Source: a virus
Reading direction: 5' to 3' (one strand)
Length of the DNA: 64,000 bases
IMG/VR virus record: IMGVR_UViG_3300021961_000025
Shown: piece by piece, positions 3,084 to 23,170 of the stretch
How the letters are laid out: every line of letters starts with the position of its first letter
How positions within the stretch are numbered: position 1 is the first letter of the stretch
The notes under the pieces: generated by a model
The model's input: only the letters and a program-made list of their open reading frames with translations
Told to the model about the DNA's origin: nothing
Database searches by the model: none
Position numbers and translations under genes: made by a program

Positions 3084-3112
3084 TTGACTTTTATAAAAAT
3101 TTCGAGTATAAT
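3084..3112 (+). promoter_or_regulatory. Early sigma70-type promoter
   Basis: TTGACT-N17-TATAAT. Confidence 0.88.
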
Positions 3113-3311: not shown

Positions 3312-3730
3312 TGCAGTCTAAATTTCAACAACTGTTTATGAAATTTGCAGAAGAAACTGCTAAAGTCTCTTCTGCTACGAAACTGCAAGTTGGTGCAGTT
3401 ATAGTGAAGAACAATCGAGTTATTTCGATTGGATACAATGGTACTCCTGCTGGATGGGATAACGTTTGCGAGGATGCTGATGGTCACACTAAATCTGAGG
3501 TAATGCATGCTGAAGAGAATGCGATACTTAAACTTGCTAGAGATGGCGAGTCTGGTTTAGGAAGTTGGATGTTTTTAACCCACGCACCTTGCATACATTG
3601 TGCGAGAATGATACATGGAGTAGGAATAAATACTATTGTTTATGGACAAAAATACAAAAACGACGAAGGACTGGAATTTCTGGAAAAGTCAAATATACCG
3701 ACTTTCCACTTCCAACAATCTCATTCTTAG
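3311..3730 (+). CDS. cd: dCMP deaminase
   Basis: VGAVIVK, SIGYNGTPAG, HAEENAI and APCIHC Zn-binding motifs. Confidence 0.9.
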   Translation: MQSKFQQLFMKFAEETAKVSSATKLQVGAVIVKNNRVISIGYNGTPAGWDNVCEDADGHTKSEVMHAEENAILKLARDGESGLGSWMFLTHAPCIHCARMIHGVGINTIVYGQKYKNDEGLEFLEKSNIPTFHFQQSHS

Positions 3731-4457
3731 AATAGGCTACTATGGATTTCTTCATGCTCTTGCTCTTTATGGGATTATTAGTTGGGGGAGTTTGGGGTTT
3801 GTGGCGACTGCTCTCGGAATTTGGTTTGTGGGGGGGATTGCTGTTAGTGTTTATGTCCATCGTGGTTTGGCTCATGGAGTCGTTCAATTTCATCCAGTAA
3901 TAGAGTATATACTTTTAATTTTCTCAATAGGTAGTGGCATAGGTACACCAGTAGGATGGGCAGCAATCCATCGAATGCATCACGAATATTTGGACACGGA
4001 TCAAGATCCACATAGTCCTTGGCGTATAGGTTTTTGGAGAAGTTATTTTCATTTATGGAACTGGGAGGCAAAAGATGTGCCTTACCGAATGGCAAAAGGT
4101 TTGATTAGTAACAAACGTGCTATGATGTTTCATAATTGGGCAGTACCAATTCTAATTCTATTTTGGATTGGTTGTTTTAGTTTCGGTATGTGGTTTGCCA
4201 CTGCAGCAGCATTAGGTGCAGCATTTGGTGTTCACGGAATGGGATTAACAAATGCTTTTAGTCATCATGGCAAAGAGCGAAAAGAGATTCGAGATTTACC
4301 GAAGTGGTTATCTTGGGTTAACGTAGGTGAAGGACAGCACGAATATCATCATGCTCGTCCATGGGATTATAGTTTCGGAAAAGGGTACTCTGATATCGGT
4401 GCAAGATTTGTTGAGGTATTAGAGAAATTGGGTTTGGCTACTATCAAAAGGAAATGA
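3642..4457 (+). CDS. Membrane fatty-acid desaturase (delta-9/OLE1-like)
   Basis: Three His boxes HRGLAH, HRMHH, HEYHH plus DPHSP and TM segments; start uncertain (overlaps cd). Confidence 0.88.
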   Translation: MDKNTKTTKDWNFWKSQIYRLSTSNNLILRIGYYGFLHALALYGIISWGSLGFVATALGIWFVGGIAVSVYVHRGLAHGVVQFHPVIEYILLIFSIGSGIGTPVGWAAIHRMHHEYLDTDQDPHSPWRIGFWRSYFHLWNWEAKDVPYRMAKGLISNKRAMMFHNWAVPILILFWIGCFSFGMWFATAAALGAAFGVHGMGLTNAFSHHGKERKEIRDLPKWLSWVNVGEGQHEYHHARPWDYSFGKGYSDIGARFVEVLEKLGLATIKRK

Positions 4458-4465
4458 TATCCAGT

Positions 4466-4542
4466 GCGAGCATAGCCCAATCGGTAGAGGCAACAGACTT
4501 AAAATCTGTACAGTGTGGGTTCGAATCCCACTGCTCGTACCA
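4466..4542 (+). tRNA. tRNA-Leu(TAA), short variable arm
   Basis: Cloverleaf; anticodon arm ACAGA-CTTAAAA-TCTGT; TTCGAAT T-loop; encoded CCA. Confidence 0.88.
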
Positions 4543-4544
4543 TA

Positions 4545-4621
4545 GTCCCTTTAGTTCAGTTGGATAGAACAACAGTCTTCTAAACTGTAGGTCGCAGGTT
4601 CGAATCCTGCAGGGGACGCCA
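4545..4621 (+). tRNA. tRNA-Arg(TCT)
   Basis: Cloverleaf; ACAGT-CTTCTAA-ACTGT; encoded CCA. Confidence 0.95.
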
Positions 4622-5350: not shown

Positions 5351-5379
5351 TTGACTAATTCTTCAAGTTGTAGTATAAT
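5351..5379 (+). promoter_or_regulatory. Early sigma70-type promoter
   Basis: TTGACT-N17-TATAAT with no ORF downstream before the tRNA. Confidence 0.85.
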
Positions 5380-5645: not shown

Positions 5646-5721
5646 TCGCTCGTAGCTCAGTGGATAGAGCACTTGTCTACGGAACAAGGGGTCGCACGTT
5701 CGAATCGTGCCGAGCGAGCCA
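5646..5721 (+). tRNA. tRNA-Arg(ACG)
   Basis: TCGCTCG/CGAGCGA acceptor, CTTGT-CTACGGA-ACAAG anticodon arm, encoded CCA. Confidence 0.95.
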
Positions 5722-5752
5722 AGAAAACACTTCAGACAAGATAGGTGACAAC

Positions 5753-6208
5753 TTGTACAATACTGTTTCTGAAGATCATCCGTGGGGTATACTTTCGTAT
5801 AATCCCTCTTACAATCGACATCCTTACGAACGAATCTTCAAGCAATTAGAAGAACACGCTATACGCAACTATGGTGTACGTGATCAATTTAAACTTGCTG
5901 CAGGAGTTGTAAAGAAAAAGCAACTGATTACTATTGGCTATAATCAGTTAAAGTCCCATCCACTTCAGAGTCAGTTTGGTAAAAATTTCGATAGTGTTTT
6001 TCTCCATGCAGAAATAGACGCTATCCGTAAATCTTTACGACTACTAAATAGTAGTGAATTGTCAGACTGCGTTCTTTATGTTCTTAGGGTTAAGCGAGAT
6101 CCTAATGGTAATTGGATTCGAGGAATGTCAAAACCATGCGCAGGATGTTACAAAGCAATTAACAATTATGGTATAAAACGAGTTTATTATACCACAGATG
6201 GGGAATAA
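5753..6208 (+). CDS. Zn-dependent nucleoside/nucleotide deaminase (CDA superfamily)
   Basis: LHAEIDAI and SKPCAGC motifs; start reassigned to TTG 5753 (AGGTG SD) because the track start lies inside the tRNA. Confidence 0.82.
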   Translation: MYNTVSEDHPWGILSYNPSYNRHPYERIFKQLEEHAIRNYGVRDQFKLAAGVVKKKQLITIGYNQLKSHPLQSQFGKNFDSVFLHAEIDAIRKSLRLLNSSELSDCVLYVLRVKRDPNGNWIRGMSKPCAGCYKAINNYGIKRVYYTTDGE

Positions 6209-6213
6209 ATTAA

Positions 6214-7059
6214 ATGTTTGTAGCAACACATCCAAGAGAAGTTTTTAACTACACAGATGAAACTGTGATAGCAAACTCGCATCCACCTTACGCAGTAAAA
6301 CTCAAAGTCCCTTTCTCACGTCCATTCACTGACGAAGATTTCATTTCAAAACTACCTATTCCAAAATATTGGTTTGATCCAAAGCACATCCCTGAAAAGA
6401 TGACTTTGATTGATTACCTTATTCATCCTATTAAAAAAGATTATAATGCAGATGTAGGTTACTGTAGCGAGGGTAACTATCGTCAAGGAACTAACTTGGG
6501 TACGGATATTATTCGTATGCCAATGGATAAAATTGTTTGGAAAAACAAATACGAATTTTGGTGGTCTTGTATTGATATTATTAATAACGAAAATAGTTCA
6601 GATCTTGTTCATCCACGATTTACAAAATGGTTAAATGAAAGAGATCTTATTCTATTAGGTTGGGATATTTTTATTACACCACCTAATATGTGGTTGCTTT
6701 ATCACAAAGACACCTACAACGAATGCTGCAAATTAAACTTCGTATATCATTTTAATATGGATGGTTACTCTTGTCAAAGTTATTTTGACGATAATGCTAA
6801 AGGAGATGGTATTGTTTCTGGAGATCCAGATGTAAAATATCGTATTCCACCAGAAGTAAAACCAAAGATGATACACGAACATAATCTATCAAACGATTTA
6901 ACGATGCCATCACTAACCAACATTGGTAAGTGGCATTGTGTATATAACTCTACATCTGGACCAAGAGTTTGCCTTAGCTATATGATTGGTAAAAAAAATG
7001 GTAGAGATATAACTTGGGATAAAGTATATCCACAAGTTGAAAAGGATGTAATTTGGTAA
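6214..7059 (+). CDS. Cupin/Fe(II) oxygenase-like protein, family A copy 1
   Basis: YHKD...KLNF...SLTNIGKWH...R motif pattern shared with the next four ORFs. Confidence 0.65.
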   Translation: MFVATHPREVFNYTDETVIANSHPPYAVKLKVPFSRPFTDEDFISKLPIPKYWFDPKHIPEKMTLIDYLIHPIKKDYNADVGYCSEGNYRQGTNLGTDIIRMPMDKIVWKNKYEFWWSCIDIINNENSSDLVHPRFTKWLNERDLILLGWDIFITPPNMWLLYHKDTYNECCKLNFVYHFNMDGYSCQSYFDDNAKGDGIVSGDPDVKYRIPPEVKPKMIHEHNLSNDLTMPSLTNIGKWHCVYNSTSGPRVCLSYMIGKKNGRDITWDKVYPQVEKDVIW

Positions 7060-7664
7060 TGACTTACATCAAGCAAGTAAAGTTTCCATTCAATATACCT
7101 TATGACGATCCTATGATGATCCAATCTTTTCGTGAAGAAGCAAAGAAAGAGATTAAAAAAAATCCATTAGTTCAAAACTATGGCATCGATTATGACGCCA
7201 GTGGAGTTAGTGAAACTGCTCGTGCTTTCTTTAATCAACAGGGGTATGATGTAGTTGGATGCGAATACTTTTACTTTGAGCCAAATTTTAAAATGGGTAT
7301 TCATATTGATGGCAGTAAGTATTGCTACAAAGCAAAATTTAATTGGGTACTTAACGATAACGTAACGCATATCTTTAAATTCTTCGAGCCAATAGTAGAA
7401 GGAAAATCGGATGCTCACAACGATGGCAATAGTCCGTATAGTCTACAGTTTGATGAAAAAATGGTTGTCGAAAAAGAAGCAAATGTAATTGGCAAACCAA
7501 GTTTATGTATGGTGGGAGTTCCACACCAAGTAATTAATGGACCAAAAGAATTAGAATTATTTAATGTCTGTGTTTGGAAAAAAGGTGTAAAGAGATCTCA
7601 TCCAGATTTAGGTGGTATGGATATGCAAGATGCATTAAAGGATTTCAGTAAATATGTTATATAA
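7059..7664 (+). CDS. Cupin/Fe(II) oxygenase-like protein, family A copy 2
   Basis: IHIDG...KFNW...PSLCMVGVPH (HxD...H triad). Confidence 0.7.
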   Translation: MTYIKQVKFPFNIPYDDPMMIQSFREEAKKEIKKNPLVQNYGIDYDASGVSETARAFFNQQGYDVVGCEYFYFEPNFKMGIHIDGSKYCYKAKFNWVLNDNVTHIFKFFEPIVEGKSDAHNDGNSPYSLQFDEKMVVEKEANVIGKPSLCMVGVPHQVINGPKELELFNVCVWKKGVKRSHPDLGGMDMQDALKDFSKYVI

Positions 7665-8241
7665 AAGATTAAGACATCAAGAACACTTAGAACCAATTCC
7701 ACAACCATTAACACCTTTAGGTATGGCTTGGGCTAAAGACTATCCATTCGAAAAACAAACTAAAATATTTACTGAGAGGAATTTATTTAATCCTGAGTTT
7801 GAAGAATGGCTTTGGAAACATGGACAACTAAGAATTGCAGATATTGAATTGTTTTTAAATCCAGCTAATCACAGCATGCCTGTTCACATAGATGGTGAAA
7901 CAATTTGTGATGTCTGTAAAATAAACTTTGCATATTGCGATAGTCCTAGCTTTATGAAATGGTATAAACCTTTAGTTCCAGGAACTAGAGGAAACTTACC
8001 TTATGCAAATGGAAAACCAACCAACACTGTTGATATGTATTGGCAGTGGGATGGCGTAGAAGAATTAGAATCGGAAGAGATATCTATACATCTCGTGAAT
8101 GTAGGTGTTCCTCATAGTGTAACAACTACAGAAACTGAAAGGCGATGTTTATCTGTTAACCTAGATAAAATTATGCCTGATGGTACTGAAATTACTGAAG
8201 TGCCTTTTAGAATGGGTTTAGAATGTTTATCGCTCACTTAG
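7654..8241 (+). CDS. Cupin/Fe(II) oxygenase-like protein, family A copy 3
   Basis: VHIDG...KINF...LVNVGVPH...RRCLS. Confidence 0.7.
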   Translation: MLYKRLRHQEHLEPIPQPLTPLGMAWAKDYPFEKQTKIFTERNLFNPEFEEWLWKHGQLRIADIELFLNPANHSMPVHIDGETICDVCKINFAYCDSPSFMKWYKPLVPGTRGNLPYANGKPTNTVDMYWQWDGVEELESEEISIHLVNVGVPHSVTTTETERRCLSVNLDKIMPDGTEITEVPFRMGLECLSLT

Positions 8242-8789
8242 AAATACCACACAAACCATTTACTGAAGAGAACTGGCAACGTAGACTTCCATTGAAAGGA
8301 CACGTTCCTATTGATCAATCTTTGATTAATAAAGAAATGATTGATTGGTTTGAAATGAAAGGTATGTGGATTAAAAATGTGGATGTCTTTTGTAGTCCTC
8401 CAGGATTTAGATTACCTATTCACGTAGACGGAAAGAAAATTGATCATTGTTGCGCAATTAATTGGGCATATTGTGATGAGTTGGGTGCACTTATGGAGTG
8501 GTGGAAACCTAAATCAGATGTTATAAGAACAGTAACTCCAGGAACAGAAAAGACTGCATACAATATAACTACAACACCTTATGCATTTGCATGGTCAGAT
8601 GATGAGTGTGATAAAGTTTTTGAATCGGAAGTAAAGCAACCCTCTCTAGTTAATATTGGTCAACCACATGCTATGACCAATCATACAAACAGTCAGCGTT
8701 TTGCAATTAGTATTACTTTCCGTAATTTTAATGGAGTCGATATGCAATTTGAGGAAGCACATGCAAGATTACAACCACACCTACTTTAG
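8223..8789 (+). CDS. Cupin/Fe(II) oxygenase-like protein, family A copy 4
   Basis: IHVDG...AINW...PSLVNIGQPH...RFAIS. Confidence 0.7.
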   Translation: MFIAHLEIPHKPFTEENWQRRLPLKGHVPIDQSLINKEMIDWFEMKGMWIKNVDVFCSPPGFRLPIHVDGKKIDHCCAINWAYCDELGALMEWWKPKSDVIRTVTPGTEKTAYNITTTPYAFAWSDDECDKVFESEVKQPSLVNIGQPHAMTNHTNSQRFAISITFRNFNGVDMQFEEAHARLQPHLL

Positions 8790-9345
8790 AAATTTAAAAT
8801 TAGACTTTGATCCTTTTAGTGACAAGTACGTTTTTCCAGAAAGCCAAACTCAGAAAGCTAAATACACAGACCATATCGACAATCGAGAACTTATTAATCC
8901 AAAGTTAATTGATTGGGCGACGAGTATTGGTTTAGGTGTTACAAGAATAGAGAGATTCAGTAGCAATCCAAACTATCGTATGTATATACATACTGATAAT
9001 CATGATTGGATTGACAATTTGGTTAAGATCATTTGGTGTTATTGTCCTACCAATGATCATCGTATGACTTGGTACACACTTAAAGACGAATCGTGGTACG
9101 AAGTTATTACAAACAATGATAGTGGTGGAACCATGATGTTTCCAGACTTTAATTGCGTTGAAGAGGTAAGCACTACAATAATGCCCAACTCTCCAATACT
9201 TGCAAATACTGGTCAACCACACAATATAGAAAACGGACAAAATTACAGGCATGTTGTATGTGCATGGTTTCATACTTTAAAAAATCCACAGATTGACTTG
9301 CAATGGGATCTTGCGGTAAAATGTATGAAAGAATTTATTATTTAA
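8761..9345 (+). CDS. Cupin/Fe(II) oxygenase-like protein, family A copy 5
   Basis: IHTD...KIIW...LANTGQPH...RHVV; start at ATG 8761 with GAGG SD. Confidence 0.7.
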   Translation: MQDYNHTYFRNLKLDFDPFSDKYVFPESQTQKAKYTDHIDNRELINPKLIDWATSIGLGVTRIERFSSNPNYRMYIHTDNHDWIDNLVKIIWCYCPTNDHRMTWYTLKDESWYEVITNNDSGGTMMFPDFNCVEEVSTTIMPNSPILANTGQPHNIENGQNYRHVVCAWFHTLKNPQIDLQWDLAVKCMKEFII

Positions 9346-9355
9346 AGAGCAAATT

Positions 9356-10531
9356 ATGAAAAAATGTTATGTTGTTGGTTATGGGATGATTGATTCCTTA
9401 GGAAATAATCCAGTGGATTGTTTCGCTAAAATGCTTGATCCTATCGACTACTCGTCGGAACTACCAAGACTAAAAGAAGAAAATTTTCCAGTTTATCGTG
9501 GAGCGATTTTTGATCCAGAAACGATAGTTATGCCTGAGGACTTTGATCCAAAAATGGCGAGGACTTTGACTAACGCACAAAAGATGATGTTGCATGCTAC
9601 TGATCAAGCACTAGCAATGTCACGATTACCTCATCACTATGATGTAGCTGTGCTTATGTCGTCAGTTTCTAATGATACAGAATTCTTAGAGCAAAATTAT
9701 AATGCGATTAAGGATAACAGAAGAGTAAACCCAAGACAGTCTGCGAATCGAATTCCAGACATGGGATGTTCACACATAACATCACATTATCAATTCATGG
9801 GTTTATCGACCGCAGTATTTGCTAGTTGTGCAACTGGTTTGGTCGGTATCGATTATGCAATGCGTCTCGTAGATGAATACGAGTATGTTGTTGTAGGTGG
9901 TGCCGATGCTGGTTGCTTTCCGATGGCTATCAAATACTTTAACACTATGGGAGCAGTTGCCAATCATAGTATGCCTTTCGATGATAATCGTAAGGGATTT
10001 CTAATGGGAGATGGCTGTGGGGTTATGATTTTACAATCGGAGAAAAATGTAAAGAAATATGGTAGCACTGTCCATGCGACACTTTATCCAACTGGATGTG
10101 CTAGTGATGCTATGGATATGACGAGTCCTGCGAACGATGGTCGTGGTGCTAGAATCTCTATGGCAAAAGCAATGGAACACGTAGACAAAGTAGATTATGT
10201 ATGTGCGCATGCGACATCTACTTTTGTTGGCGATCCCATTGAATATGAAACTGTAGTTAGCTTTGTGGGTGATACTCCTATTTGGGCACCAAAGTCTAAG
10301 ATCGGACACACACTTGCTGCTGCTGGAATACTTGAGGGAATCTATTCCATTCTTGCGATGCAACATGGTATTGTACCTCATATTCAAAACCTCACAAATG
10401 CCTCTCTCGACACAAAGGACTTGCTCGTACGAGAGAATCAAACAAACTCGAACAAATGCTTGAGAACGCTTAACAATTCTTTTGGCTTTGGAGGTAAATG
10501 CGTTTCTCAGGTAATTGAGGTAAACAAATGA
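9356..10531 (+). CDS. Beta-ketoacyl synthase (FabF/FabB-like stand-alone ketosynthase)
   Basis: Catalytic Cys (ASCATG), His (AHATST), His (KSKIGHTL), PFD..RKGF, NSFGFGG. Confidence 0.93.
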   Translation: MKKCYVVGYGMIDSLGNNPVDCFAKMLDPIDYSSELPRLKEENFPVYRGAIFDPETIVMPEDFDPKMARTLTNAQKMMLHATDQALAMSRLPHHYDVAVLMSSVSNDTEFLEQNYNAIKDNRRVNPRQSANRIPDMGCSHITSHYQFMGLSTAVFASCATGLVGIDYAMRLVDEYEYVVVGGADAGCFPMAIKYFNTMGAVANHSMPFDDNRKGFLMGDGCGVMILQSEKNVKKYGSTVHATLYPTGCASDAMDMTSPANDGRGARISMAKAMEHVDKVDYVCAHATSTFVGDPIEYETVVSFVGDTPIWAPKSKIGHTLAAAGILEGIYSILAMQHGIVPHIQNLTNASLDTKDLLVRENQTNSNKCLRTLNNSFGFGGKCVSQVIEVNK

Positions 10532-10878
10532 GTTGGGGATATCACCTAATCATTGATTGTAAGGCATGCGAAAAAAACTTTAAAGAACCAGATATTATGA
10601 AAAAATTTGTCGCAACATTACTAGAAAAAATAAAAATGAATGCTTGGGGTGAGTGTCAAGTTGAACACTTCGCAGAAAAACCAGAGATTGCTGGTTGGAC
10701 TGTTATTCAACCATTGACGACAAGCACATTAACAATGCATTTCTTGGATAATTCAGGAGATCTATACTTTGATCTTTTCAGTTGTAAGAAATTTGATATT
10801 CAAGAAGTCGTGGATCACTTAGCTGAGTATTTTGCTCCAGTTAATATTCGTCCATTCTATCTTGAAAGGAGTGCCTAA
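10528..10878 (+). CDS. speD: S-adenosylmethionine decarboxylase proenzyme (pyruvoyl type)
   Basis: WGYHLIIDC, GWTVIQPLTTSTLTMH, YFDLFSCKKF typical of short phage/bacterial SAMDC. Confidence 0.82.
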   Translation: MSWGYHLIIDCKACEKNFKEPDIMKKFVATLLEKIKMNAWGECQVEHFAEKPEIAGWTVIQPLTTSTLTMHFLDNSGDLYFDLFSCKKFDIQEVVDHLAEYFAPVNIRPFYLERSA

Positions 10879-10880
10879 TT

Positions 10881-11351
10881 TTGCTAACACCAAAAGAAGC
10901 ACTAATGAGGTGGCTTAATAGAATCCAGATACCTCAAGAAAAGTTATCTGGATTTGCCATCTGTCCATTTAGTAAACAGATTCGTGGAGAACCTGCAATG
11001 ATCTCTACATTAGTAGAAGATATTGTTCCACCAAAAGTAAGCGAAATTAAAAAGATTCTAGTTTATCATATTCTTGATGAGGATATTACTATTGAAGAAC
11101 TAGAGAATGAAGTGTTTATATTGAATTCTAAATATAAACCAGAGTTACTATTTTTAGGCGATCATATGGATCGTGATACATATATTAATGGTGTTCAAAC
11201 TAATAATGGACATTATAACTTTATACTGTGCCAACCACTAGATGATTTGAGAAGTGCAAGAAAAGTACTTGCTAAAACTCCATATTACTCTTACTGGGAT
11301 GACGAGTATTTAAAAGAAATCTTAGGAGAAGATTATGGCAGTTTGGACTGA
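10881..11351 (+). CDS. DUF1415-like protein
   Basis: W......GFAICPF N-terminal motif; C-terminal L.KT.YY.YW. Confidence 0.55.
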   Translation: MLTPKEALMRWLNRIQIPQEKLSGFAICPFSKQIRGEPAMISTLVEDIVPPKVSEIKKILVYHILDEDITIEELENEVFILNSKYKPELLFLGDHMDRDTYINGVQTNNGHYNFILCQPLDDLRSARKVLAKTPYYSYWDDEYLKEILGEDYGSLD

Positions 11352-12423
11352 TTACGACCCACTAAAAGAAATTATTGTTGGTAGTTGCCCAACAGCAGAA
11401 TACTTCAAAGCATTCCTACCTGATGATGTAATTGCTGCACTTACACCAATCCTTAAAGAAACCAAAGAAGATCTAGATAATATGCAACGAGTGTTTGAAT
11501 CACTCGGTGTTAAAGTATATCGTCCTAAGATTTTACCATTTCAACAGAATTTAAAACTTCCTGGATTCTCAATTAAAAATGCTATTGCACCTATTGTTCC
11601 TCGTGATCAATACTTGGTGTATGGTGATACTATTATCCAATCATATACTTCAATGCCAGATCGTTGGCTTGAGGGATTATGTTTCTATGATATCTTCAAC
11701 GAAAAGTTTGACGAAGGATATAATTGGATAAGTGTACCACCACCTGTTATTAAAAACTTCCCTTCAAATACTTCTTGGTTTACTCATGGTGGCGATCGTT
11801 ATAAGATCGAAATGAAAGATAAACTACTCTGGCATGCAGCAACAATGTTTAAAATTGGCGACAGTTTAATTGTCAATAATCAAGGTCCAGGAACTCAAAA
11901 AGGATATGAGTGGTTTAAACGTCAGTTACCTCAAACCAAATTTGTAGATAACATTAAGAAACCACATCGTGGATGGGGACATATTGATCAATACTTCTTT
12001 TTAGTTAATGATACTACTTGTTTCTGTACTGATGAGAATTATGTTCCAGAAGCAATTAGACAAAATCCAAATATCAAAGTCCATTCATTTGGGCATTTGA
12101 TTAAAGATGTTGATCTTAACTCTTACGATGATAATCTAGTTGCAAGCGATGGTAAATTTACCAAAGGCTGGATTGATGAATGGGTTGGTGAATGGAGAGG
12201 GTTTGCACAAGACGTTGCTTTTGATAGTAACGTTGTTGTAGTAGATGAAAAGAATATCGTTATAAGTAACGAACAGCCAAAACTACAAGAGTGGTTATTA
12301 AAGAATCACGGAGTAACTGCTCACGTTGCAAAACAGAGACAAGGTGGTTTCTGGGATGGTGGCGTTCATTGTTTAACGCTAGATATTAAGCGTGATGGAG
12401 TATCAAGAAATGTCTTGGGTTAA
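11335..12423 (+). CDS. Amidinotransferase (glycine/inosamine amidinotransferase family)
   Basis: WTDYDPLKEIIVG, PRD, GHID, GGVHC.TLD pentein-fold motifs. Confidence 0.88.
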   Translation: MAVWTDYDPLKEIIVGSCPTAEYFKAFLPDDVIAALTPILKETKEDLDNMQRVFESLGVKVYRPKILPFQQNLKLPGFSIKNAIAPIVPRDQYLVYGDTIIQSYTSMPDRWLEGLCFYDIFNEKFDEGYNWISVPPPVIKNFPSNTSWFTHGGDRYKIEMKDKLLWHAATMFKIGDSLIVNNQGPGTQKGYEWFKRQLPQTKFVDNIKKPHRGWGHIDQYFFLVNDTTCFCTDENYVPEAIRQNPNIKVHSFGHLIKDVDLNSYDDNLVASDGKFTKGWIDEWVGEWRGFAQDVAFDSNVVVVDEKNIVISNEQPKLQEWLLKNHGVTAHVAKQRQGGFWDGGVHCLTLDIKRDGVSRNVLG

Positions 12424-13021
12424 CGCTAAAACCTATACACATTATGCAGATTTAGAAAAAGCAATTCCTATTGTTGTAGAAGAAACACAACAATGGATGA
12501 AGCATAATCACGATATTGTTGGTGTTACGGTAAATACCTTTGGAGTAAATAGTAAAGAAGATTTAACCGAAGTCCCTGTTACACCAGAAGAGTATAAGCA
12601 TATGGATGACTGGAGAGTTTTACCTATGCTTTATGCGAAAGAGTGGAATCGACATGTATTTCCAAAGTCGCACTTTTTGCTTGCTCCACTTCCAGGACTG
12701 TATCAAGCATTAGTAAATTTTGTTGTTCCTGGAGGAAGGATTGCGAAACATCGTGACACAGGAAACTGGGACAGGATTGAAGAACACTATGGGATTCGTA
12801 TTGATGGTTATAGTGTGGTACTTAATCTTAACATCGCTATGAGTGATAAGAAAGAAAAAACAGTAGGTATGGAAGTTGGTGGATTTGAAAAGTATCCACT
12901 AACTGGAGAGATCGTCGCATTTGATGGTCGTTCAACAGCACATAGTATGTGGAATTTAACAGATCAATGGCGAGTTACTGCTGTACTTGACTTTGATAAG
13001 AGGTATTTCAATGTGGATTAA
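12410..13021 (+). CDS. Asp/Asn beta-hydroxylase-like 2OG-Fe(II) dioxygenase, family B copy 1
   Basis: PGGRIAKHRD...FDGRSTAHSMWN.TDQWRVTAVLD. Confidence 0.78.
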   Translation: MSWVNAKTYTHYADLEKAIPIVVEETQQWMKHNHDIVGVTVNTFGVNSKEDLTEVPVTPEEYKHMDDWRVLPMLYAKEWNRHVFPKSHFLLAPLPGLYQALVNFVVPGGRIAKHRDTGNWDRIEEHYGIRIDGYSVVLNLNIAMSDKKEKTVGMEVGGFEKYPLTGEIVAFDGRSTAHSMWNLTDQWRVTAVLDFDKRYFNVD

Positions 13022-13724
13022 TGTAAAGAAGTATAAACACTACGACAAGTTATTGGAGATTATTCCATTAGCACAACAAGACTTTGCTAATTGGAAAGAC
13101 AAATACAAATACGAAGATCGTATGCAGGTATTAAAGTTTGAACATCCAGATGTTTATCCTGAATTAAAAGGAACATCTACAAGCAGTGATCTTTATCACC
13201 GACCAGAAAGTATTCCAGATCGACCAAATCCAAAAGAGAATTGGTTCTGCGATCCTTGCAGTACAGACACTGGTAAGAAGATTGGTCCAGCATTTCAAGA
13301 CTGGAAACTATCAGCACCTAAAATTTTAGAACTTCCAGGATTTGTTCAACACCTTGTTAACTTTGTTAAGCCACATAGTAGCTTACCACCACACGATGAC
13401 TTGGGTGGATGGGTAAGACTATCAAAAGATACTGGAAGAGAATTAAATGGATTTAGTGTAGTATTAGGACTAGATACAGTAAAGAATAAAGACCAAATGG
13501 GTATTATGTTTAATAACGTTTGGACTGGCAATAAAGATCCACGTGCATGGGGTATTGGCGAGTGGGTTGCATTTGAGGGTAAAACTCATTTTCACGATGT
13601 GTTTAATAGAACAGATCAATGGCGAGTTACTGTCGTTGTAGATATTGAATACGATCAGTTTGATTTAAGTGATGAAGAGTTAGACTATTTACAAAATCGT
13701 TGGAGAACTTATAAACCTGTATGA
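13011..13724 (+). CDS. Asp/Asn beta-hydroxylase-like dioxygenase, family B copy 2
   Basis: PHSSLPPHDD...W..GEWVAFEGKTHFHDVFN.TDQWRVTVVVD. Confidence 0.78.
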   Translation: MWINVKKYKHYDKLLEIIPLAQQDFANWKDKYKYEDRMQVLKFEHPDVYPELKGTSTSSDLYHRPESIPDRPNPKENWFCDPCSTDTGKKIGPAFQDWKLSAPKILELPGFVQHLVNFVKPHSSLPPHDDLGGWVRLSKDTGRELNGFSVVLGLDTVKNKDQMGIMFNNVWTGNKDPRAWGIGEWVAFEGKTHFHDVFNRTDQWRVTVVVDIEYDQFDLSDEELDYLQNRWRTYKPV

Positions 13725-13894
13725 AAAAAACAATAATAAAAATATTAGATGTAACTAAAGATATACTAGAGTGGTGGATTTACTGGGTGTTTTATGTAGT
13801 AGCTGTTCCACTTTTCTTCGGTGGACTAGCTGTAATATGGACGATAGATCAAGCGATGGAATTAATAAAGAAAATTTATAAACGTTATAGGTAG
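13721..13894 (+). CDS. Small membrane protein (57 aa) inside the cluster
   Basis: Not in track; ATGA overlap; MKKTIIKILDVTKDILEWWIYWVFYVVAVPLFFGGLAVIWTIDQAMELIKKIYKRYR; ends 3 nt before next ATG. Confidence 0.6.
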   Translation: MKKTIIKILDVTKDILEWWIYWVFYVVAVPLFFGGLAVIWTIDQAMELIKKIYKRYR

Positions 13895-13897
13895 AAA

Positions 13898-14482
13898 ATG
13901 TGGAGAAATTATAAAGATTATAAACACCATGGATTGCTTAGAGAAGTACATCAAGCAATGCATGCAGATTATCTAGATTGGATAAAAACTCATGATATTA
14001 GAAACAGTACTGTTAATGTGTTTAAGTATGAGTATCCTGAAGCAAAGCATCAATACGCAGACTCTTGGTGGGCGATACCTATTGCGCAGGGTGGTAAACT
14101 CGAACCCAATGACTGGAAAAGAACATCACCACTTGTAGAAAAACTTCCTGGATTACTACAGTGTGTTATTAATTTTATTGAACCACAAGGTGGACTACCA
14201 ATGCATAAAGACATGGGTAGTTGGCATCGTATTGAACAGGCTATCGGACGCAGAGTAACAGGATGGACGATTGGTATTGGTATCGATATGCCTAGTGAAT
14301 CACATAGAGAATTAGCAATTAAATTTCTTGAAGATGATATTGGAACATGCTATAAAAACGGAGAGTTCGTTTGTTTCGATGGACGTAATCATCTACACGA
14401 AGTTTGGAATAAAACAGACAAATGGCGAGTCAGTGCAGTAATTGATCTCGATGATAAGGAGTTTCGAAATGTGGTTGGGTGA
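13898..14482 (+). CDS. Asp/Asn beta-hydroxylase-like dioxygenase, family B copy 3
   Basis: PQGGLPMHKD...GEFVCFDGRNHLHEVWN.TDKWRVSAVID. Confidence 0.8.
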   Translation: MWRNYKDYKHHGLLREVHQAMHADYLDWIKTHDIRNSTVNVFKYEYPEAKHQYADSWWAIPIAQGGKLEPNDWKRTSPLVEKLPGLLQCVINFIEPQGGLPMHKDMGSWHRIEQAIGRRVTGWTIGIGIDMPSESHRELAIKFLEDDIGTCYKNGEFVCFDGRNHLHEVWNKTDKWRVSAVIDLDDKEFRNVVG

Positions 14483-15050
14483 TCCAATTCAATATAAGCA
14501 TTACACCAAATTACAAGATTTGATGACTGCGATGATGCAAGATCATCTTGAATGGAAAGAAAAATATACCATTGAGGAAAAATGCATTGACGCTGGATTG
14601 CGTTATAAAATGCCTGCAGAAAACACTGGTGGCTTTATGGCACTACCAGTAATTGACGCAAGAGAAATTAAAATGCCATGGGCAGAGGGATGGGATCGAA
14701 CTATGACTGCTGCCTTTGATTGTCCTGGAATGATTGATATGTGTATTAACTTCATTCGTCCAGGAATGATGTTACCTGTCCATCACGATGGGTATGTATG
14801 GGATTGGATTCGTAAATCGATGAACAATCCGAAATTATCTGGGTATACCATTTCTTTTGGTATTTCAATTCCTGAACCCAGTAAACAAGCACTAATCTTT
14901 GACGAAGAAAAACGTATTTGGAGTACTGGAGAGTTTCGTGCATTTAATGGGCACGACGTTCAACATCAACTTACAAATCGTTCGAAAGAACACTGGCGTG
15001 TAACTGCAGTGATGGAAGTCGAAGAAAAATATTTTGATCTGCAAGAGTAG
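14469..15050 (+). CDS. Asp/Asn beta-hydroxylase-like dioxygenase, family B copy 4
   Basis: PGMMLPVHHD...WSTGEFRAFNGHDVQH...WRVTAVME. Confidence 0.78.
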   Translation: MWLGDPIQYKHYTKLQDLMTAMMQDHLEWKEKYTIEEKCIDAGLRYKMPAENTGGFMALPVIDAREIKMPWAEGWDRTMTAAFDCPGMIDMCINFIRPGMMLPVHHDGYVWDWIRKSMNNPKLSGYTISFGISIPEPSKQALIFDEEKRIWSTGEFRAFNGHDVQHQLTNRSKEHWRVTAVMEVEEKYFDLQE

Positions 15051-16967: not shown

Positions 16968-16996
16968 TTGACTTTTTGTAAATATTGTGGTATAAT
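16968..16996 (+). promoter_or_regulatory. Early sigma70-type promoter
   Basis: TTGACT-N17-TATAAT with extended -10. Confidence 0.9.
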
Positions 16997-17002
16997 ATAC
17001 TT

Positions 17003-17515
17003 ATGAAAATGGAAAATATGATGAAAAACGTGAAAAAAATATACTTAGACATGGATGGCGTTATCGCCGATTTTGATAAACATTACTTTGCAGGTGGTAA
17101 GTCATTCTTATACGATGACTTTAGGGATCAAGTCCTTAATAAAAATCTGTTTAGGCAACTACCTTTGATGCCTGATTATGAAAAGTTTATCGCAGGTGTG
17201 TTAGAGATTGCACACGATAATGGATTTGAAGTTGAAATCTGTTCTTCGACTCATACTTTAGATCCTGAAATGATGAAGATTGCTAGTGATCAAAAAAGCT
17301 GGTGGTTGAAAAATGTAGCGATGCTGAAGTCGATGCCTGCAAACTTTGTTGAACGTAGATCGGCAAAAGCGAAATTCGCAAATGAAAAAACGATTCTAAT
17401 TGACGATTCTATAGAATGTATTAACTACTTTAAAGAGGGTGGTGGTAATGCGATCTGTCATCAAGACGTAGATACTACTCTTACTCTTCTAAAAGAAATG
17501 GTGAAATCGATTTGA
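17003..17515 (+). CDS. HAD-family 5'(3')-deoxyribonucleotidase
   Basis: IYLDMDGVIADF...ILIDD motifs. Confidence 0.85.
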   Translation: MKMENMMKNVKKIYLDMDGVIADFDKHYFAGGKSFLYDDFRDQVLNKNLFRQLPLMPDYEKFIAGVLEIAHDNGFEVEICSSTHTLDPEMMKIASDQKSWWLKNVAMLKSMPANFVERRSAKAKFANEKTILIDDSIECINYFKEGGGNAICHQDVDTTLTLLKEMVKSI

Positions 17516-18111
17516 ACATATTCTACTTAGATCCTAATCCAAAACTATGTGCTGAATATCATTGCGACAAACACGTCGTTAAGATGATTATTGAATATGC
17601 ACAATTGCTTTCCACTGCACATCGTGTTATTGATGGTACGCAATGGGAAGGTAAATCTATTAGTGGAAGACGTATTGCTCGTTGGAAACATCCAGATCCA
17701 ATAATGGATTCAGAGTTATATTTGGCATCACACATTAAACATCCTAGTGGTATTTGGTGTCGTGAAAACGAAAAGAATTATACTTGGTTGTATACTCTTT
17801 GGATTAATCTTTGCCACGAATATACTCATCGTTATGGTAAGGTGCATCTTACTGAACAAAAACTTTCAAAACATTTAATTAGTATTCCAAAGAATATAAA
17901 ACAGGGTGTATGGTGTGAACCCTATCCTGCAATGGCACATTATCCTCAATGTATTGTTAAAAATGATAGTTTGAAATCCTATCATAACTATTATATTGCT
18001 GACAAGGTTAGATTTGCAAAATGGACAAAACGAGATATTCCTAAATGGTTTAAAGATATGCTTGTTACTGCAATGTCAAATACACATCAGATAGTAGGAA
18101 TTCGTTCCTAA
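17512..18111 (+). CDS. Pyrimidine-dimer DNA glycosylase-like protein
   Basis: MNIFYLD...HCDKHVVKMI.E.AQLLSTAH, H..HP..W, EYT.RYGK.H. Confidence 0.75.
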   Translation: MNIFYLDPNPKLCAEYHCDKHVVKMIIEYAQLLSTAHRVIDGTQWEGKSISGRRIARWKHPDPIMDSELYLASHIKHPSGIWCRENEKNYTWLYTLWINLCHEYTHRYGKVHLTEQKLSKHLISIPKNIKQGVWCEPYPAMAHYPQCIVKNDSLKSYHNYYIADKVRFAKWTKRDIPKWFKDMLVTAMSNTHQIVGIRS

Positions 18112-18140
18112 ATAAATAATAGTTAATTAGAGAGTACAAT

Positions 18141-18392
18141 ATGCCAACTTACAGTTTTAGAGACAACGATACAGGAAAAGAATTTGATGTCGTAATGTCA
18201 ATCTCCGAAAGAGATGAGTATGTAAAGAAAAACAAAAACCATACTCAAATATTAAAATCAGCACCAATGGTAGTACAAGGACATCGTTCTGGTAATACCG
18301 ATCTCGGAAAGAATAAAGGATTTAAGGAAGTCTTGAATAACATTCATAAACGGACTCCTGGATCTGTTCTTAATAAAACAACAGACTTATAA
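18141..18392 (+). CDS. FmdB-like small protein (Cys-less variant)
   Basis: MPTYSF...TG.EFDV.MSISE; usually precedes phoH in T4-like phages. Confidence 0.65.
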   Translation: MPTYSFRDNDTGKEFDVVMSISERDEYVKKNKNHTQILKSAPMVVQGHRSGNTDLGKNKGFKEVLNNIHKRTPGSVLNKTTDL

Positions 18393-18403
18393 GTAAGGAT
18401 TAA

Positions 18404-19150
18404 ATGGCTAGAGCATCTAGACGTAAAGAGGATGATCACGTAAATCCCTCAACTGGCAGAAAGCCAGCACCACCCAAAATTAAAATTGATCAGTTAGAAG
18501 TAATTAAACCTCTAACAAAGAATCAAGAACTCTTTTTTGATTCATACAAATCAAACAAAGAATTGATTGTACTGCACGGAGTTGCTGGTACAGGTAAATC
18601 TTTTATCGCAGTATACAAAGGTTTAGAAGAAGTATTAAATAGAGCAACTCACTATGATAAATTGATCATTATTAGATCGGCTGTTCAAACAAGAGAAATT
18701 GGACATCTTCCTGGAGATCTAGCTGAGAAGTTAGAGCAGTATCAATTACCATATAAACAGATTTGTACTCATCTATTCGGTAGACGTGATGCTTATAGTT
18801 TATTGGCTGATCAAGGAACAGTAGAATTCGCAAGTACTTCTTTTGTAAGAGGGTTGACGTTTGATGACGCAGTTATTATTGTAGATGAATGTCAAAATAT
18901 GACTTGGGAAGAACTCGATACTATTACTACTCGAGTAGGCGATAGATCCAGAATTATTTTTTGTGGAGACTATCGACAAACAGATTTGAAGAAGACTGGT
19001 GATAAATCAGGACTCTTTAAATTTTTAGATGTATTAAAACTCATGAAGAGTTATGCTCGTATTGAGTTTGATGCAAATGATATCGTGCGAAGTAATCTCG
19101 TTAAAGAGTATATCTTAGCACGTATTGATTACGAAGATAAAGAAAAATAG
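18404..19150 (+). CDS. phoH: PhoH family ATPase
   Basis: GVAGTGKS, IGHLPG, RGLTFD, IIVDECQN, GDYRQTDL, DIVRS. Confidence 0.95.
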   Translation: MARASRRKEDDHVNPSTGRKPAPPKIKIDQLEVIKPLTKNQELFFDSYKSNKELIVLHGVAGTGKSFIAVYKGLEEVLNRATHYDKLIIIRSAVQTREIGHLPGDLAEKLEQYQLPYKQICTHLFGRRDAYSLLADQGTVEFASTSFVRGLTFDDAVIIVDECQNMTWEELDTITTRVGDRSRIIFCGDYRQTDLKKTGDKSGLFKFLDVLKLMKSYARIEFDANDIVRSNLVKEYILARIDYEDKEK

Positions 19151-19153
19151 GAG

Positions 19154-19279
19154 ATGAAAACTATGCTTACATGGTTAATCGTTGGACTTTTTATTGGTTG
19201 GAATTTACCACAACCAGTCTGGGCAAAAGCTGTTCAGGATAAAGTGGTAGCAACAGTAAAATCTTGGGTTGCAAAATAA
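19154..19279 (+). CDS. Small single-TM protein (start 19154 or 19163)
   Basis: Not in track; MKTMLTWLIVGLFIGWNLPQPVWAKAVQDKVVATVKSWVAK; AGGAG SD. Confidence 0.65.
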   Translation: MKTMLTWLIVGLFIGWNLPQPVWAKAVQDKVVATVKSWVAK

Positions 19280-19289
19280 GGAATAAACA

Positions 19290-19742
19290 ATGACATTTAA
19301 ATTATCACAAAGATCGTTAGACAGACTAGACGGAGTTGATGAATCCCTAGTCAATGTGGTCAAGCGAGCAATTGAATTAACTGATGTAGACTTTGGTGTT
19401 ACCGAAGGACTACGTTCAGAAGAAACTCAACGAAAGTATGTTGAGGCTGGCAAATCACAGACTATGAAGTCTAAGCATCTTGAGGGTAAAGCAGTCGATC
19501 TAGTTGCATACGTAGATGGTGCTGTTACTTGGGAATTAAACGTATATGATAATATTGCAGATGCTATGAAGAAAGCAGCAGACGAACAAGGTGTATCTGT
19601 TCGTTGGGGTGCAGCATGGCATATCAATAACATTTGCGACTTCTCAGGCACTATGGATGATGCAATGATGGAGTATATCGATAAACGTAGGGCAGAGGGC
19701 AAGCGTCCTTTTATTGACGCACCACACTTCGAACTTACATAA
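19290..19742 (+). CDS. M15 family peptidase endolysin (L-Ala-D-Glu peptidase-like)
   Basis: FKLSQRS..RL.GV, EGLRS...Q, SKHLEGKAVD, DAPHFEL. Confidence 0.9.
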   Translation: MTFKLSQRSLDRLDGVDESLVNVVKRAIELTDVDFGVTEGLRSEETQRKYVEAGKSQTMKSKHLEGKAVDLVAYVDGAVTWELNVYDNIADAMKKAADEQGVSVRWGAAWHINNICDFSGTMDDAMMEYIDKRRAEGKRPFIDAPHFELT

Positions 19743-19774
19743 TTGCTTTGCAATTTATTATGTAGTATAATATT

Positions 19775-20431
19775 ATGATGAAATTTACACACATTGAACA
19801 TAACTTTCCTACGTTACAAAGAATAGACGGAGAACATGGTAGGGTTTATCAGACACCATCTGGTAAATCCTATCCATCCGTAACTTCTGTAACTGGATTA
19901 CTAAACAAAAAAGCCATTCAAGAATGGCGAGATAGAGTTGGTGCCAAAGTTGCGAACGAGATATCTACTCGTGCAGCAAAACGTGGGACAAGCATTCACA
20001 AACTGTGTGAAGATTATCTATCTAATAAAGGTGATACTTCGGACATCTTTGATCAAGAAGAATTCACACATATTAAACCTTACCTCCACAAAATCAATAA
20101 CATTCACTGCTTAGAAGATAAGCTGTACAGCGATCACTTAGGTGTTGCTGGAACAGTGGATTGTATTGCTGAGTATGAGGGTAAGTTATCAGTCATTGAC
20201 TTTAAAACTTCTTCAAAACCAAAAACGAGGGAGATGATTGCGAACTACTTTATGCAAACATCTGCTTATGCTGTTTGTTTTGAAGAATTATTTGGAAGAC
20301 CCATTGAAAGAATGTTAATTATTATGTCTGTCAAAGATCAAGGCATTGACATCTTTGAGGGTAAGCGAGATGACTATATCGATGGCTTTAAAAAGCTGAG
20401 AATTGAATATAAACAATGGAAGGGAATATAA
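19775..20431 (+). CDS. PD-(D/E)XK exonuclease (Cas4-like phage nuclease)
   Basis: YPSVT, RGT.IH, AGTVDCI, VIDFKTS, YFMQ..AY. Confidence 0.88.
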   Translation: MMKFTHIEHNFPTLQRIDGEHGRVYQTPSGKSYPSVTSVTGLLNKKAIQEWRDRVGAKVANEISTRAAKRGTSIHKLCEDYLSNKGDTSDIFDQEEFTHIKPYLHKINNIHCLEDKLYSDHLGVAGTVDCIAEYEGKLSVIDFKTSSKPKTREMIANYFMQTSAYAVCFEELFGRPIERMLIIMSVKDQGIDIFEGKRDDYIDGFKKLRIEYKQWKGI

Positions 20432-20432
20432 G

Positions 20433-20954
20433 ATGAAACTACAAGATGTTTTATTCTACATGCGAGAGCGTGATGAATCGATCGGTGGAGACAATCCTTA
20501 CAAGTGGGTTTATAAGCATACAAATGATTTGTTTGCGAATAAGAAAGTTGTAATTTTTGGTCTTCCTGGAGCATTCACACCTACCTGTTCCAACTCACAA
20601 CTACCTGAATATGAACAACGTCATCAAGAGTTTAAAGATCTTGGTGTTGACGAAGTTTGGTGTACGTCTGTTAATGATGCGTTTGTAATGCATCAATGGG
20701 CGAAGTCACAAAACCTTGTTCATACAAAGTTGTTGCCTGATGGAAATGGAGACTTTGCGAAGTCTATGGGTATGCTAGTAGATAAACGTAATCTTGGATT
20801 CGGACATCGTAGCTGGAGATATTCTATGTTGGTTGACAACATGGAAGTCAAAGCGATTTTCAAAGAACCAGATCTAATGGATAACTGTCCATACGATCCA
20901 TTCTTTGTATCAGATGCTGACCAAATGATTGCGCATTTAAAAACAGTATGCTAA
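20433..20954 (+). CDS. Peroxiredoxin (Prx5 type)
   Basis: FGLPGAFTPTCS, SVNDAFVM, PDGNG, GFG.RSWRY. Confidence 0.93.
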   Translation: MKLQDVLFYMRERDESIGGDNPYKWVYKHTNDLFANKKVVIFGLPGAFTPTCSNSQLPEYEQRHQEFKDLGVDEVWCTSVNDAFVMHQWAKSQNLVHTKLLPDGNGDFAKSMGMLVDKRNLGFGHRSWRYSMLVDNMEVKAIFKEPDLMDNCPYDPFFVSDADQMIAHLKTVC

Positions 20955-22867: not shown

Positions 22868-22906
22868 TTTACTTGCAAGAAATTAAAGAATATACTAAAT
22901 AATATG

Positions 22907-23145: not shown

Positions 23146-23170
23146 TATTAACTTTTATAATAGGAGAACG

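Follow-up and report, generated by a model that had tools for sequence, protein, structure and literature searches.

An amidinotransferase-centred gene module within an oxygenase-rich accessory island of a freshwater T4-like phage

The 64,000-nucleotide stretch of IMGVR_UViG_3300021961_000025 analysed here (hereafter the window, whose coordinates are used throughout) comes from an uncultured freshwater T4-like phage and carries, at positions 6214–15050, 14 plus-strand open reading frames (ORFs) whose neighbours overlap by 4–32 nt or are separated by gaps of 2–10 nt. An earlier note, made from the sequence alone, listed these 14 co-oriented ORFs, all of which are present where it placed them, and proposed that they form a dedicated pathway for a hydroxylated acyl/guanidino/polyamine product. 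We tentatively favour a different reading, in which the region is an early-expressed accessory island of separable modules rather than one 14-gene pathway, and in which a core module would make an oxidised guanidino/polyamine-like compound. This putative core comprises the genes at 10528–12423, encoding a SpeD-like decarboxylase, a small protein of 156 amino acids (p156) and an amidinotransferase, together with a class III aminotransferase gene at 20948–22228. Our search of the literature found no published description of this gene cluster.

Linkage of the core genes across phage lineages

The β-ketoacyl synthase (ketosynthase, KS) gene of the island has orthologues in 15 IMG/VR contigs, and every contig of sufficient length retains the full gene order: desaturase, three to six A-family oxygenases, KS, SpeD-like decarboxylase, p156, amidinotransferase, four to six B-family oxygenases, denV-like and nuclease genes, and aminotransferase. 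Conserved synteny, which the earlier note had proposed as a check, was therefore found in these phages rather than a scattering of homologous genes. However, the 15 contigs form a single lineage and count as one observation. For this reason, a wider survey was made of 80 loci around p156 homologues and 80 loci around amidinotransferase homologues, in which ORFs were labelled by profile hidden Markov models (HMMs) and the loci were collapsed to 32 lineages at 80% amidinotransferase identity.

A p156 gene lies within 6 kb of the amidinotransferase gene in 24 of the 32 lineages, and within two genes of it in 22. The class III aminotransferase gene is found at these distances in 19 and 15 lineages, respectively, which bears out the earlier suggestion that it is an outlying member of the group. 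Intermediate values were obtained for SpeD-like genes (10 and 8 lineages), B-type oxygenases (10 and 8) and A-type oxygenases (11 and 3), whereas KS and the desaturase each occur within 6 kb in 2 lineages and within two genes in none. Thus the linkage expected of a single one-product gene cluster is seen for the p156, amidinotransferase and aminotransferase genes and in part for the SpeD-like, A and B genes, but fails for KS and the desaturase. Of the proposed pathway, a guanidino/polyamine-type module with a linked core is supported, whereas its acyl part is not.

The order and strand of the core genes vary among lineages. For example, locus L077 carries p156, amidinotransferase, SpeD-like and aminotransferase genes in that order, L159 carries amidinotransferase, aminotransferase, B-type oxygenase, one other gene and p156 on opposite strands, and L175 carries p156, an A-type oxygenase, aminotransferase and amidinotransferase. 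The core genes are also rearranged in a further lineage (L174). Because gene order and strand differ in this way, the linkage appears to reflect more than inherited synteny. In addition, a metagenomic protein of 265 amino acids (P0138) is a natural fusion of a SpeD-like part (residues 1–115) and a p156-like part (residues 123–261).

One relative from the same lineage as the window (G001; 144,834 bp with terminal repeats) is complete, which allowed the search that the earlier note had proposed for an acyl carrier protein (ACP; PF00550), an acyl ligase or an aminopropyltransferase. None of the three was found in G001, which has no spermidine synthase gene. A TET/JBP gene is present in G001 at a distance of ~40 kb from the cluster, and none was found in four other large, incomplete contigs that bear the amidinotransferase gene. 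TET/JBP was consequently rejected as a constant companion of the amidinotransferase module, and a link to DNA hypermodification was set aside.

Various other genes flank the core in other lineages. These include genes for two tryptophan-halogenase-like flavoenzymes, a 2OG-FeII_Oxy_5 protein, a B12-binding radical S-adenosylmethionine (SAM) enzyme and other radical SAM enzymes (e.g. L118:10920–12404 (-), L118:13751–15298 (+) and L134:10140–13216 (+)). In lineages that lack KS and SpeD-like genes, proteins of 470–530 and ~204 amino acids are regularly encoded 5' of p156 (L118:5593–7005 (+), L118:6981–7595 (+) and relatives); neither has a Pfam or PDB (Protein Data Bank) match or a homologue in the window. 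At L057:7001–10096 and ~20 similar loci, the fixed order is a 255-amino-acid protein, p156, an 85-amino-acid protein, gp25 and gp6.

Protein families of the core module

The amidinotransferase (11335–12423 (+), 362 amino acids) belongs to the AGAT/StrB1/HsvA superfamily. A profile built from the window protein and five orthologues matches PDB entries for HsvA (1.5e-25), StrB1 (9e-24), SxtG and human AGAT, with E-values to 4e-20. Residues His216-Ile-Asp218 and His345-Cys346 are invariant in 24 diverse homologues, and His345-Cys346 aligns to the FHC motif of HsvA. These profile matches and invariant catalytic motifs confirm the amidinotransferase assignment of the earlier note, even though searches against Pfam, including PF02274, gave nothing at E ≤ 0.01. 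The same Pfam search likewise gave no match for p156 or for the five A-family ORFs.

The likeness of the phage enzyme to HsvA, StrB1, SxtG and AGAT extends to superfamily membership by profile, the His-x-Asp and His-Cys motifs and a presumed arginine donor. HsvA, an enzyme of the phevamine pathway, amidinates spermidine (PMC6187163). However, the middle third of the window protein (residues ~219–296) does not align to HsvA, and the phage enzyme has no ATP-grasp partners and shares only ~20–29% identity with any cellular enzyme. The nearest cellular proteins, at 20–29% identity, are from Bdellovibrionota, from Streptomyces (StrB1-like) and from Pseudomonas/Erwinia (HsvA- or AmtA-like). Homologues occur at no fewer than 185 viral loci, and on present sequence evidence both the amidinotransferase and the p156 families appear to be essentially virus-specific.

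Among isolate phages, relatives of the amidinotransferase were found only in Campylobacter phages CP220 and F379 (27% identity). In CP220 (L096, 70923–81966), the gene is surrounded by five paralogous radical SAM genes, two genes of glycosyltransferase type and one for a PAP2 phosphatase, and this neighbourhood could represent an anaerobic equivalent of the oxygenase arrays. CP220 gp085, encoded 5' of the Campylobacter phage amidinotransferase, was considered as a p156 equivalent and rejected because it is not homologous. Amidinotransferase genes have also been listed as 'antibiotic synthesis genes', without a function, in a 2025 paper on cyanomyovirus S-SCSM2R (PMC12801897). Accessory islands of T4-like cyanophages such as S-SCSM2R, which carry multiple 2OG-Fe(II) oxygenase and halogenase genes, resemble the present one in occurring in an aquatic T4-like phage, in having arrays of oxygenase paralogues and in an amidinotransferase gene noted beside aminotransferase and radical SAM genes. 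The cyanophage-island reports list genes only, and do not describe the p156-amidinotransferase-aminotransferase linkage, the SpeD fusion or KS.

The SpeD-like ORF (10528–10878 (+)) encodes a putative pyruvoyl decarboxylase with the class 1b S-adenosylmethionine decarboxylase (AdoMetDC) fold, as indicated by matches to PF02675 (55.7 bits against a cut-off of 25; 7e-15) and phrog_3125. Residues Thr65-Ser66, His71 and Cys86 are invariant in 10 sequences. We take Ser66, His71 and Cys86 to be the processing and catalytic residues, with roles carried over from the Thermotoga enzyme, and the pattern fits a self-processing pyruvoyl enzyme. However, the SAM-decarboxylase equivalog model TIGR03330 scores only 28 bits against a cut-off of 75.65. 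The earlier assignment as a SAM decarboxylase is therefore upheld in its fold and its Ser, His and Cys residues, but not at the level of the equivalog.

Phage homologues of SpeD are known to be AdoMetDC, ornithine decarboxylase or arginine decarboxylase enzymes, and several of those from freshwater myophages are ornithine decarboxylases (Li et al. 2023, PMC9992855). The window protein shares with them the class 1b AdoMetDC fold, a length of ~116 amino acids, an origin in a freshwater myophage and the processing Ser, His and Cys. It differs in its cleavage motif, which is Thr-Ser rather than Glu-Ser, and its identity to isolate-phage SpeD proteins does not exceed 35%, the value for the nearest of them, that of phage phiN3. 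The linkage and fusion to a heme-enzyme-like protein seen here are absent from that paper's account.

The aminotransferase (20948–22228 (+)), a likely distal member of the module, matches PF00202 with 142.7 bits, above the cut-off, and reaches the cut-off of no NCBIfam equivalog. Its nearest solved structures are omega-, γ-aminobutyric acid (GABA)-, putrescine- and polyamine:pyruvate transaminases, which is consistent with an omega-type enzyme.

The p156 protein (10881–11351 (+)) is assigned to phrog_10325, and is called 'T4-like GC 824' in one source. Its family comprises at least 551 representative clusters at E ≤ 0.001 and is almost purely viral; a search of 185,579 species genomes turned up no close relative. 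An AlphaFold2 (AF2) model of p156, with a predicted local distance difference test (pLDDT) score of 93.2, has four strands flanked by helices. In an exhaustive structural scan with VIA, the sole match above Z 5 is to AglA from Streptomyces monomycini (9ub3; Z 6.3, root-mean-square deviation 4.1 Å over 145 of 156 residues), and the next match has a Z of 3.9. A Foldseek search of the PDB with the model gave nothing at E ≤ 0.001, and a p156 profile gave chance matches only against PDB sequences.

AglA, the first YqcI/YcgG protein to have its structure determined, is a guanidine N-hydroxylase whose heme is ligated by Cys44 and whose four-stranded 'sandwich' fold has no counterpart according to its authors (PMC12866846). 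The family once labelled DUF6875, now cytochrome P422, has a similar fold and binds heme via an RxGxVCP motif (bioRxiv 10.64898/2025.12.11.692455). The p156 model appears to share with AglA (PF08892, from the argolaphos pathway) and P422 (PF21780) a small alpha/beta sandwich with a four-stranded sheet, and the protein has a conserved N-terminal Cys-Pro, the Cys of which is the heme ligand in those families. In p156, Cys28 is invariant in alignments of 35 and 44 sequences within the motif G-x-x-I-C-P, and Pro29 is invariant in the former and at least 90% conserved in the latter, which includes distant members. Moreover, AglA, DcsA and GntA N-hydroxylate guanidines, and p156 adjoins a guanidine-forming enzyme.

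There are also differences from these families. With 156 amino acids, p156 is smaller than the AglA chain (243) and falls below the range of 180–300 used for P422, and its motif has one more residue between glycine and Cys than that of P422. It has no significant match to either Pfam model, the PF08892 HMM gave no match on three related phage records, and its family is essentially viral. Distant p156 members do reach 20.4 bits with DUF1415 (cut-off 26) and 17.9 bits with DUF6875 (cut-off 24.5), the best DUF6875 E-value among family members being 5.8e-4, and these sub-threshold matches fall exactly on the N-terminal Cys-Pro region. The earlier label 'DUF1415-like' is thus not sustained for the window protein itself, which has no Pfam match, since the likeness appears in distant members only and below threshold. 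Judging from the model and the conserved motif, p156 is probably a miniature thiolate-heme mono-oxygenase with an AglA/P422-like fold.

Oxygenase arrays, lipid genes and expression of the island

Nine iron-oxygenase paralogues, as the earlier note had counted, surround the core: five of the A family and four of the B family, both with a conserved HxD..H triad and an Arg. The A-family ORFs, all on the plus strand, are A1 (6214–7059, with a long N-terminal extension), A2 (7053–7664; L001 orthologue 56% identical), A3 (7654–8241; orthologues in all KS-lineage loci), A4 (8223–8789) and A5 (8701–9345; orthologues 56–64% identical). In the A-family alignment, H67, D69 and H149 are invariant and R159 is at least 90% conserved. 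The AF2 model of A4 (pLDDT 90.6) is a double-stranded beta-helix, for which Foldseek returned NO66, MINA53, YcfD, cysteine dioxygenase (CDO) and AlkB. The VIA scan gave Z 10.6 both to proline 3-hydroxylase (1e5r) and to a nucleoside-antibiotic hydroxylase, Z 9.6 to another 2-oxoglutarate (2OG) oxygenase and Z 9.3 to AspH. A profile of the A family found no match among PDB sequences. The five HxD...H cupin proteins of the earlier note are, on the strength of the model and conserved residues, predicted 2OG/Fe(II) oxygenases.

The B-family ORFs, likewise on the plus strand, are B1 (12392–13021, 209 amino acids), B2 (12987–13724), B3 (13898–14482) and B4 (14442–15050; orthologues 57–62% identical). 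Against a PF05118 cut-off of 22.6 bits, B1 (27.3) and B3 (32.0) score above and B2 (20.4) and B4 (17.8) below. H184 is invariant in this family, and H120, D122 and R194 are nearly so. The B proteins thus agree with their earlier description as four AspH-like dioxygenases, although two fall short of the Pfam cut-off. Comparison of the A and B profiles revealed no detectable relation between the families. Orthologues of B1 at L001:13216–14259 and L002:9206–10204 have an extra C-terminal part of ~130 amino acids that the window B1 lacks. The A and B paralogues may act as tailoring or diversifying enzymes; they are frequent companions of the core and would add further hydroxylations. Most of the copies, however, are lineage-specific additions and not proven pathway members.

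The longest-ORF starts of A5, B2 and B4 are TTG and that of B1 is GTG, and all four probably lie too far upstream; the true start of A5 is probably near 8761–8785. Between B2 and B3 lies a 57-amino-acid single-pass membrane ORF with a hydrophobic core (13721–13894 (+)). This ORF exists as the earlier note described it, but it is not conserved in relatives and its membership is doubtful. It was not accepted as a precursor peptide or as part of the pathway: it is unrelated to the 57-amino-acid ORFs of relatives, and L001 has no such ORF at this position. Those ORFs of relatives (L004:8628–8801 and orthologues) are conserved, lie between the A paralogues and carry a small zinc-finger-like pattern, Cys..HP..CxxCG.

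The KS gene (9356–10531 (+)) encodes a FabF/FabB-like elongating enzyme with matches to PF00109 (89.4 bits) and PF02801 (79.4 bits). Aligned to the FabF structures 1j3n and 1b3n, it keeps the active-site Cys (ASCATG), His (AHATST) and Lys/His (KSKIGHTLAAAG) as well as NSFGFGG, in agreement with the earlier description of a FabF-like KS with an intact Cys-His-His triad. Its best NCBIfam match is to fabF TIGR03150 (218 bits against an equivalog cut-off of 493.75), and all other KS equivalog models in NCBIfam also score below their cut-offs. The likeness to bacterial FabF and FabB (β-ketoacyl-ACP synthases II and I) therefore covers both KS domains, the Cys-His-His triad, the active-site Lys and NSFGFGG, but the phage protein differs by an identity of only ~27–30%, by its low equivalog score and by being encoded by a lytic phage whose complete relative G001 has no ACP gene. 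Its orthologues in the 15 IMG/VR contigs are 74–78% identical. No true homologue was found in GenBank phages, where the only hits are host-like fabF/fabB genes in contaminated or prophage records at ~27% identity.

The desaturase gene (3636–4457 (+)) encodes a delta-9-type membrane fatty-acid desaturase that matches PF00487 (33.1 bits, above the cut-off) and the NCBIfam DesA family (3e-15). Its translation contains three His boxes, HRGLAH, HRMHH and HEYHH, typical of delta-9 desaturases, and its closest isolate-phage relative is in Pelagibacter phage Mosig. It is kept 5' of the A array in the KS lineage and adjoins p156-amidinotransferase in one other lineage, L152. Its proposed place as an outlying pathway member is not borne out, since its linkage to the amidinotransferase fails in the survey.

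Because KS and the desaturase are each found in 2 of the 32 lineages, and because G001 has no ACP gene, KS is set apart from the core. Together, the two genes look like a separate lipid module dependent on host ACP. As additions of one lineage, they would most likely reshape host fatty acids as a pair that works on lipids and acyl-ACP of the host, with KS using the host ACP in view of the gene content of G001.

Promoter-like sites, identified as consensus matches only, give some indication of expression timing. The sequence TTGACT-17-TATAAT, an 11/12 match to a sigma-70-like consensus, occurs identically at 3084–3112, 5351–5379 and 16968–16996 (+), in each case in an intergenic gap, and these three sites are likely early promoters of the phage. 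A weaker site (TTGACT-18-TAAAAT, 10/12) at 9293–9322 (+), just 5' of KS, is a possible internal promoter, and a second weaker promoter-like site follows B4 at 15034. The late-promoter motif TATAAATA was not found in 1–25 kb. Given this absence and the site at 5351, the island is probably expressed early.

The remainder of the window is that of a T4-like myophage, with a G+C content of ~36% throughout and PHROG matches at 35–48 kb to tail-tube cap/gp48-type, gp5-type hub/lysozyme, gp6 and gp7 baseplate wedge proteins (E-values down to 1e-178). No near-identical DNA was found among GenBank phages. From the island to the aminotransferase (17512–22228) there are a weakly DenV-like gene, PhoH (18404–19150), a PD-(D/E)XK nuclease gene and a peroxiredoxin gene (20403–20954), the 3' end of which overlaps the aminotransferase start. 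Three plus-strand tRNA genes precede the island: Leu-TAA (4466–4542), Arg-TCT (4545–4621) and Arg-ACG (5646–5721). Since the last covers the first 20 codons of the longest dCMP-deaminase ORF (5660–6208), the real start of that gene is probably downstream. ARAGORN also detected a permuted two-piece tmRNA at 22878–23182 (+), with the tag ANENFALAA. This style of tmRNA is found in alphaproteobacteria and a few other groups, and it is a possible clue to the host.

Alternative explanations and significance

From these enzyme families we infer a donor, an acceptor and an order of steps for the core module. The amidinotransferase would move the amidino group of host L-arginine to a primary amine, most likely on a diamine, polyamine or omega-amino compound, and release ornithine. 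The SpeD-like decarboxylase, the omega-type aminotransferase or both would supply the amine or pull the reaction by consuming ornithine. Then p156 would oxidise the product, most likely by N-hydroxylating a guanidine or amine, and host ferredoxin would provide the electrons, to the presumed benefit of the phage. The polyamine flavour of this proposal comes from the nearest characterised relatives of three of the four core enzymes, namely HsvA, the putrescine, polyamine and GABA transaminases, and phage SpeD. A bolder version, which we consider unlikely, is that the virus-specific amidinotransferase, a p156 N-hydroxylase and the iron oxygenases yield a reactive N-hydroxyguanidine-type or N-N-bonded metabolite of infection.

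Several observations weigh against the core proposal. Genes of T4-like phages are always tightly packed, so the 17-nt overlap of the p156 and amidinotransferase genes shows little by itself. Eight of the 32 amidinotransferase lineages have no p156 nearby, and most p156 homologues stand alone just 5' of gp25/gp6 with no amidinotransferase; p156 may for this reason have a general substrate. The Z of 6.3 between the p156 model and AglA is within a range flagged as possibly reflecting a generic arrangement, no HMM for YqcI/YcgG, DUF6875 or DUF1415 matches p156 significantly, and no ferredoxin (2Fe-2S) gene was found in G001. The SpeD of phiN3 is a true AdoMetDC, by analogy with which the decarboxylase may just feed host spermidine synthesis. 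Finally, the aminotransferase gene of the window lies 8.5 kb away, beyond the phoH, nuclease and peroxiredoxin genes.

On another view, no pathway is shared, and a hyperplastic region has gathered unrelated auxiliary genes and fast-evolving oxygenase paralogues, with p156 and the amidinotransferase forming a mobile cassette or sharing a hotspot while acting on separate substrates. In other T4-like contigs, p156 alone and the amidinotransferase alone (the L151–L172 subgroup, which lacks p156) do occupy the same hotspot 5' of gp25-like genes. The neighbours also vary widely by lineage, from halogenases to radical SAM enzymes and other oxygenases, and ordinary accessory genes (phoH, nuclease, peroxiredoxin and the weakly denV-like gene) are interspersed downstream. 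However, in many lineages the two genes stay adjacent even though order and strand have changed, a SpeD-like::p156 fusion exists, and the best structural match of p156 acts on guanidines while its neighbour makes them. We regard this explanation as rather improbable. About as doubtful is the use of the core enzymes for plain polyamine boosting, in which the amidinotransferase substitutes for arginase and the SpeD-like enzyme raises putrescine or spermidine, leaving a guanidino by-product and an incidental p156. The SpeD-like catalytic residues are intact, freshwater myophage homologues act as ornithine decarboxylases, a shortage of ornithine can limit putrescine formation, and arginase is not known in phages (PMC9992855). 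On the other hand, SpeD-like genes accompany the amidinotransferase in fewer than half as many lineages as p156 does, P0138 joins SpeD to p156 rather than to the amidinotransferase, and the conserved aminotransferase and the oxygenases are left unexplained.

The single 14-gene pathway, in which a KS-built acyl chain is joined to an aminopropyl/guanidino unit and hydroxylated by nine oxygenases, is in our judgement a poor prospect as well. It accounts for the strictly kept order in the 15-contig set, for the intact KS catalytic residues, for the position of KS immediately before the SpeD-like gene, which it overlaps by 4 nt in the window, and for the desaturase that adjoins p156-amidinotransferase in L152. 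Bacterial guanidino-toxin clusters, such as those for saxitoxin and phaseolotoxin, also pair an amidinotransferase with desaturase-like genes. Nevertheless, the 15 contigs are a single observation, the two KS-bearing lineages are really one clade, and G001 has no ACP, acyl ligase or aminopropyltransferase gene, so that a role for KS in a dedicated acyl-guanidino pathway is not supported. Relatives, moreover, have ~150–220 nt and a small ORF between KS and the SpeD-like gene, and a promoter-like site precedes KS.

Macromolecule modification, by which the oxygenases would hydroxylate host translation factors, ribosomal proteins or virion proteins while the other enzymes tailor an amine on phage DNA or protein, has a similarly small chance of being correct. 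The A-family structural neighbours include the ribosomal oxygenases NO66, MINA53 and YcfD and prolyl hydroxylases, the B family is of the AspH type, G001 has a TET/JBP gene, and an amidinotransferase and a prolyl hydroxylase were present in a cyanomyovirus virion preparation (PMC12801897). However, the top structural matches of the A family are hydroxylases of free amino acids and antibiotics, the promoter pattern suggests early rather than late expression, and the TET/JBP gene is remote from the cluster in G001 and missing from the four other, incomplete contigs. To our knowledge, all characterised AGAT-family enzymes act on small molecules. The envelope, virion and DNA targets that the earlier note suggested are speculative.

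Three aspects of the island appear to be new. One is the recurrent, virus-specific module of p156, amidinotransferase and aminotransferase genes, with or without SpeD, as recognised by profile labelling of the surveyed loci. Another is that a large family of viral proteins probably consists of miniature heme enzymes, as predicted from the p156 model, and the third is a phage-borne FabF-like synthase, as judged from its domains and residues. Together with the delta-9 desaturase, this synthase offers another, independent lead, on how viruses control the membrane lipids of their hosts. Aquatic T4-like phages carry many oxygenase, halogenase and radical SAM genes, from which a recurrent and testable core has now been isolated. 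If the chemistry proposed for this core is true, it would represent a new branch of viral arginine/polyamine metabolism, give biological context to the unannotated viral family T4-like gene cluster 824 and offer compact new biocatalysts. If the N-hydroxyguanidine version were also true, lytic phages would for the first time be credited with secondary-metabolite-like chemistry of this kind.

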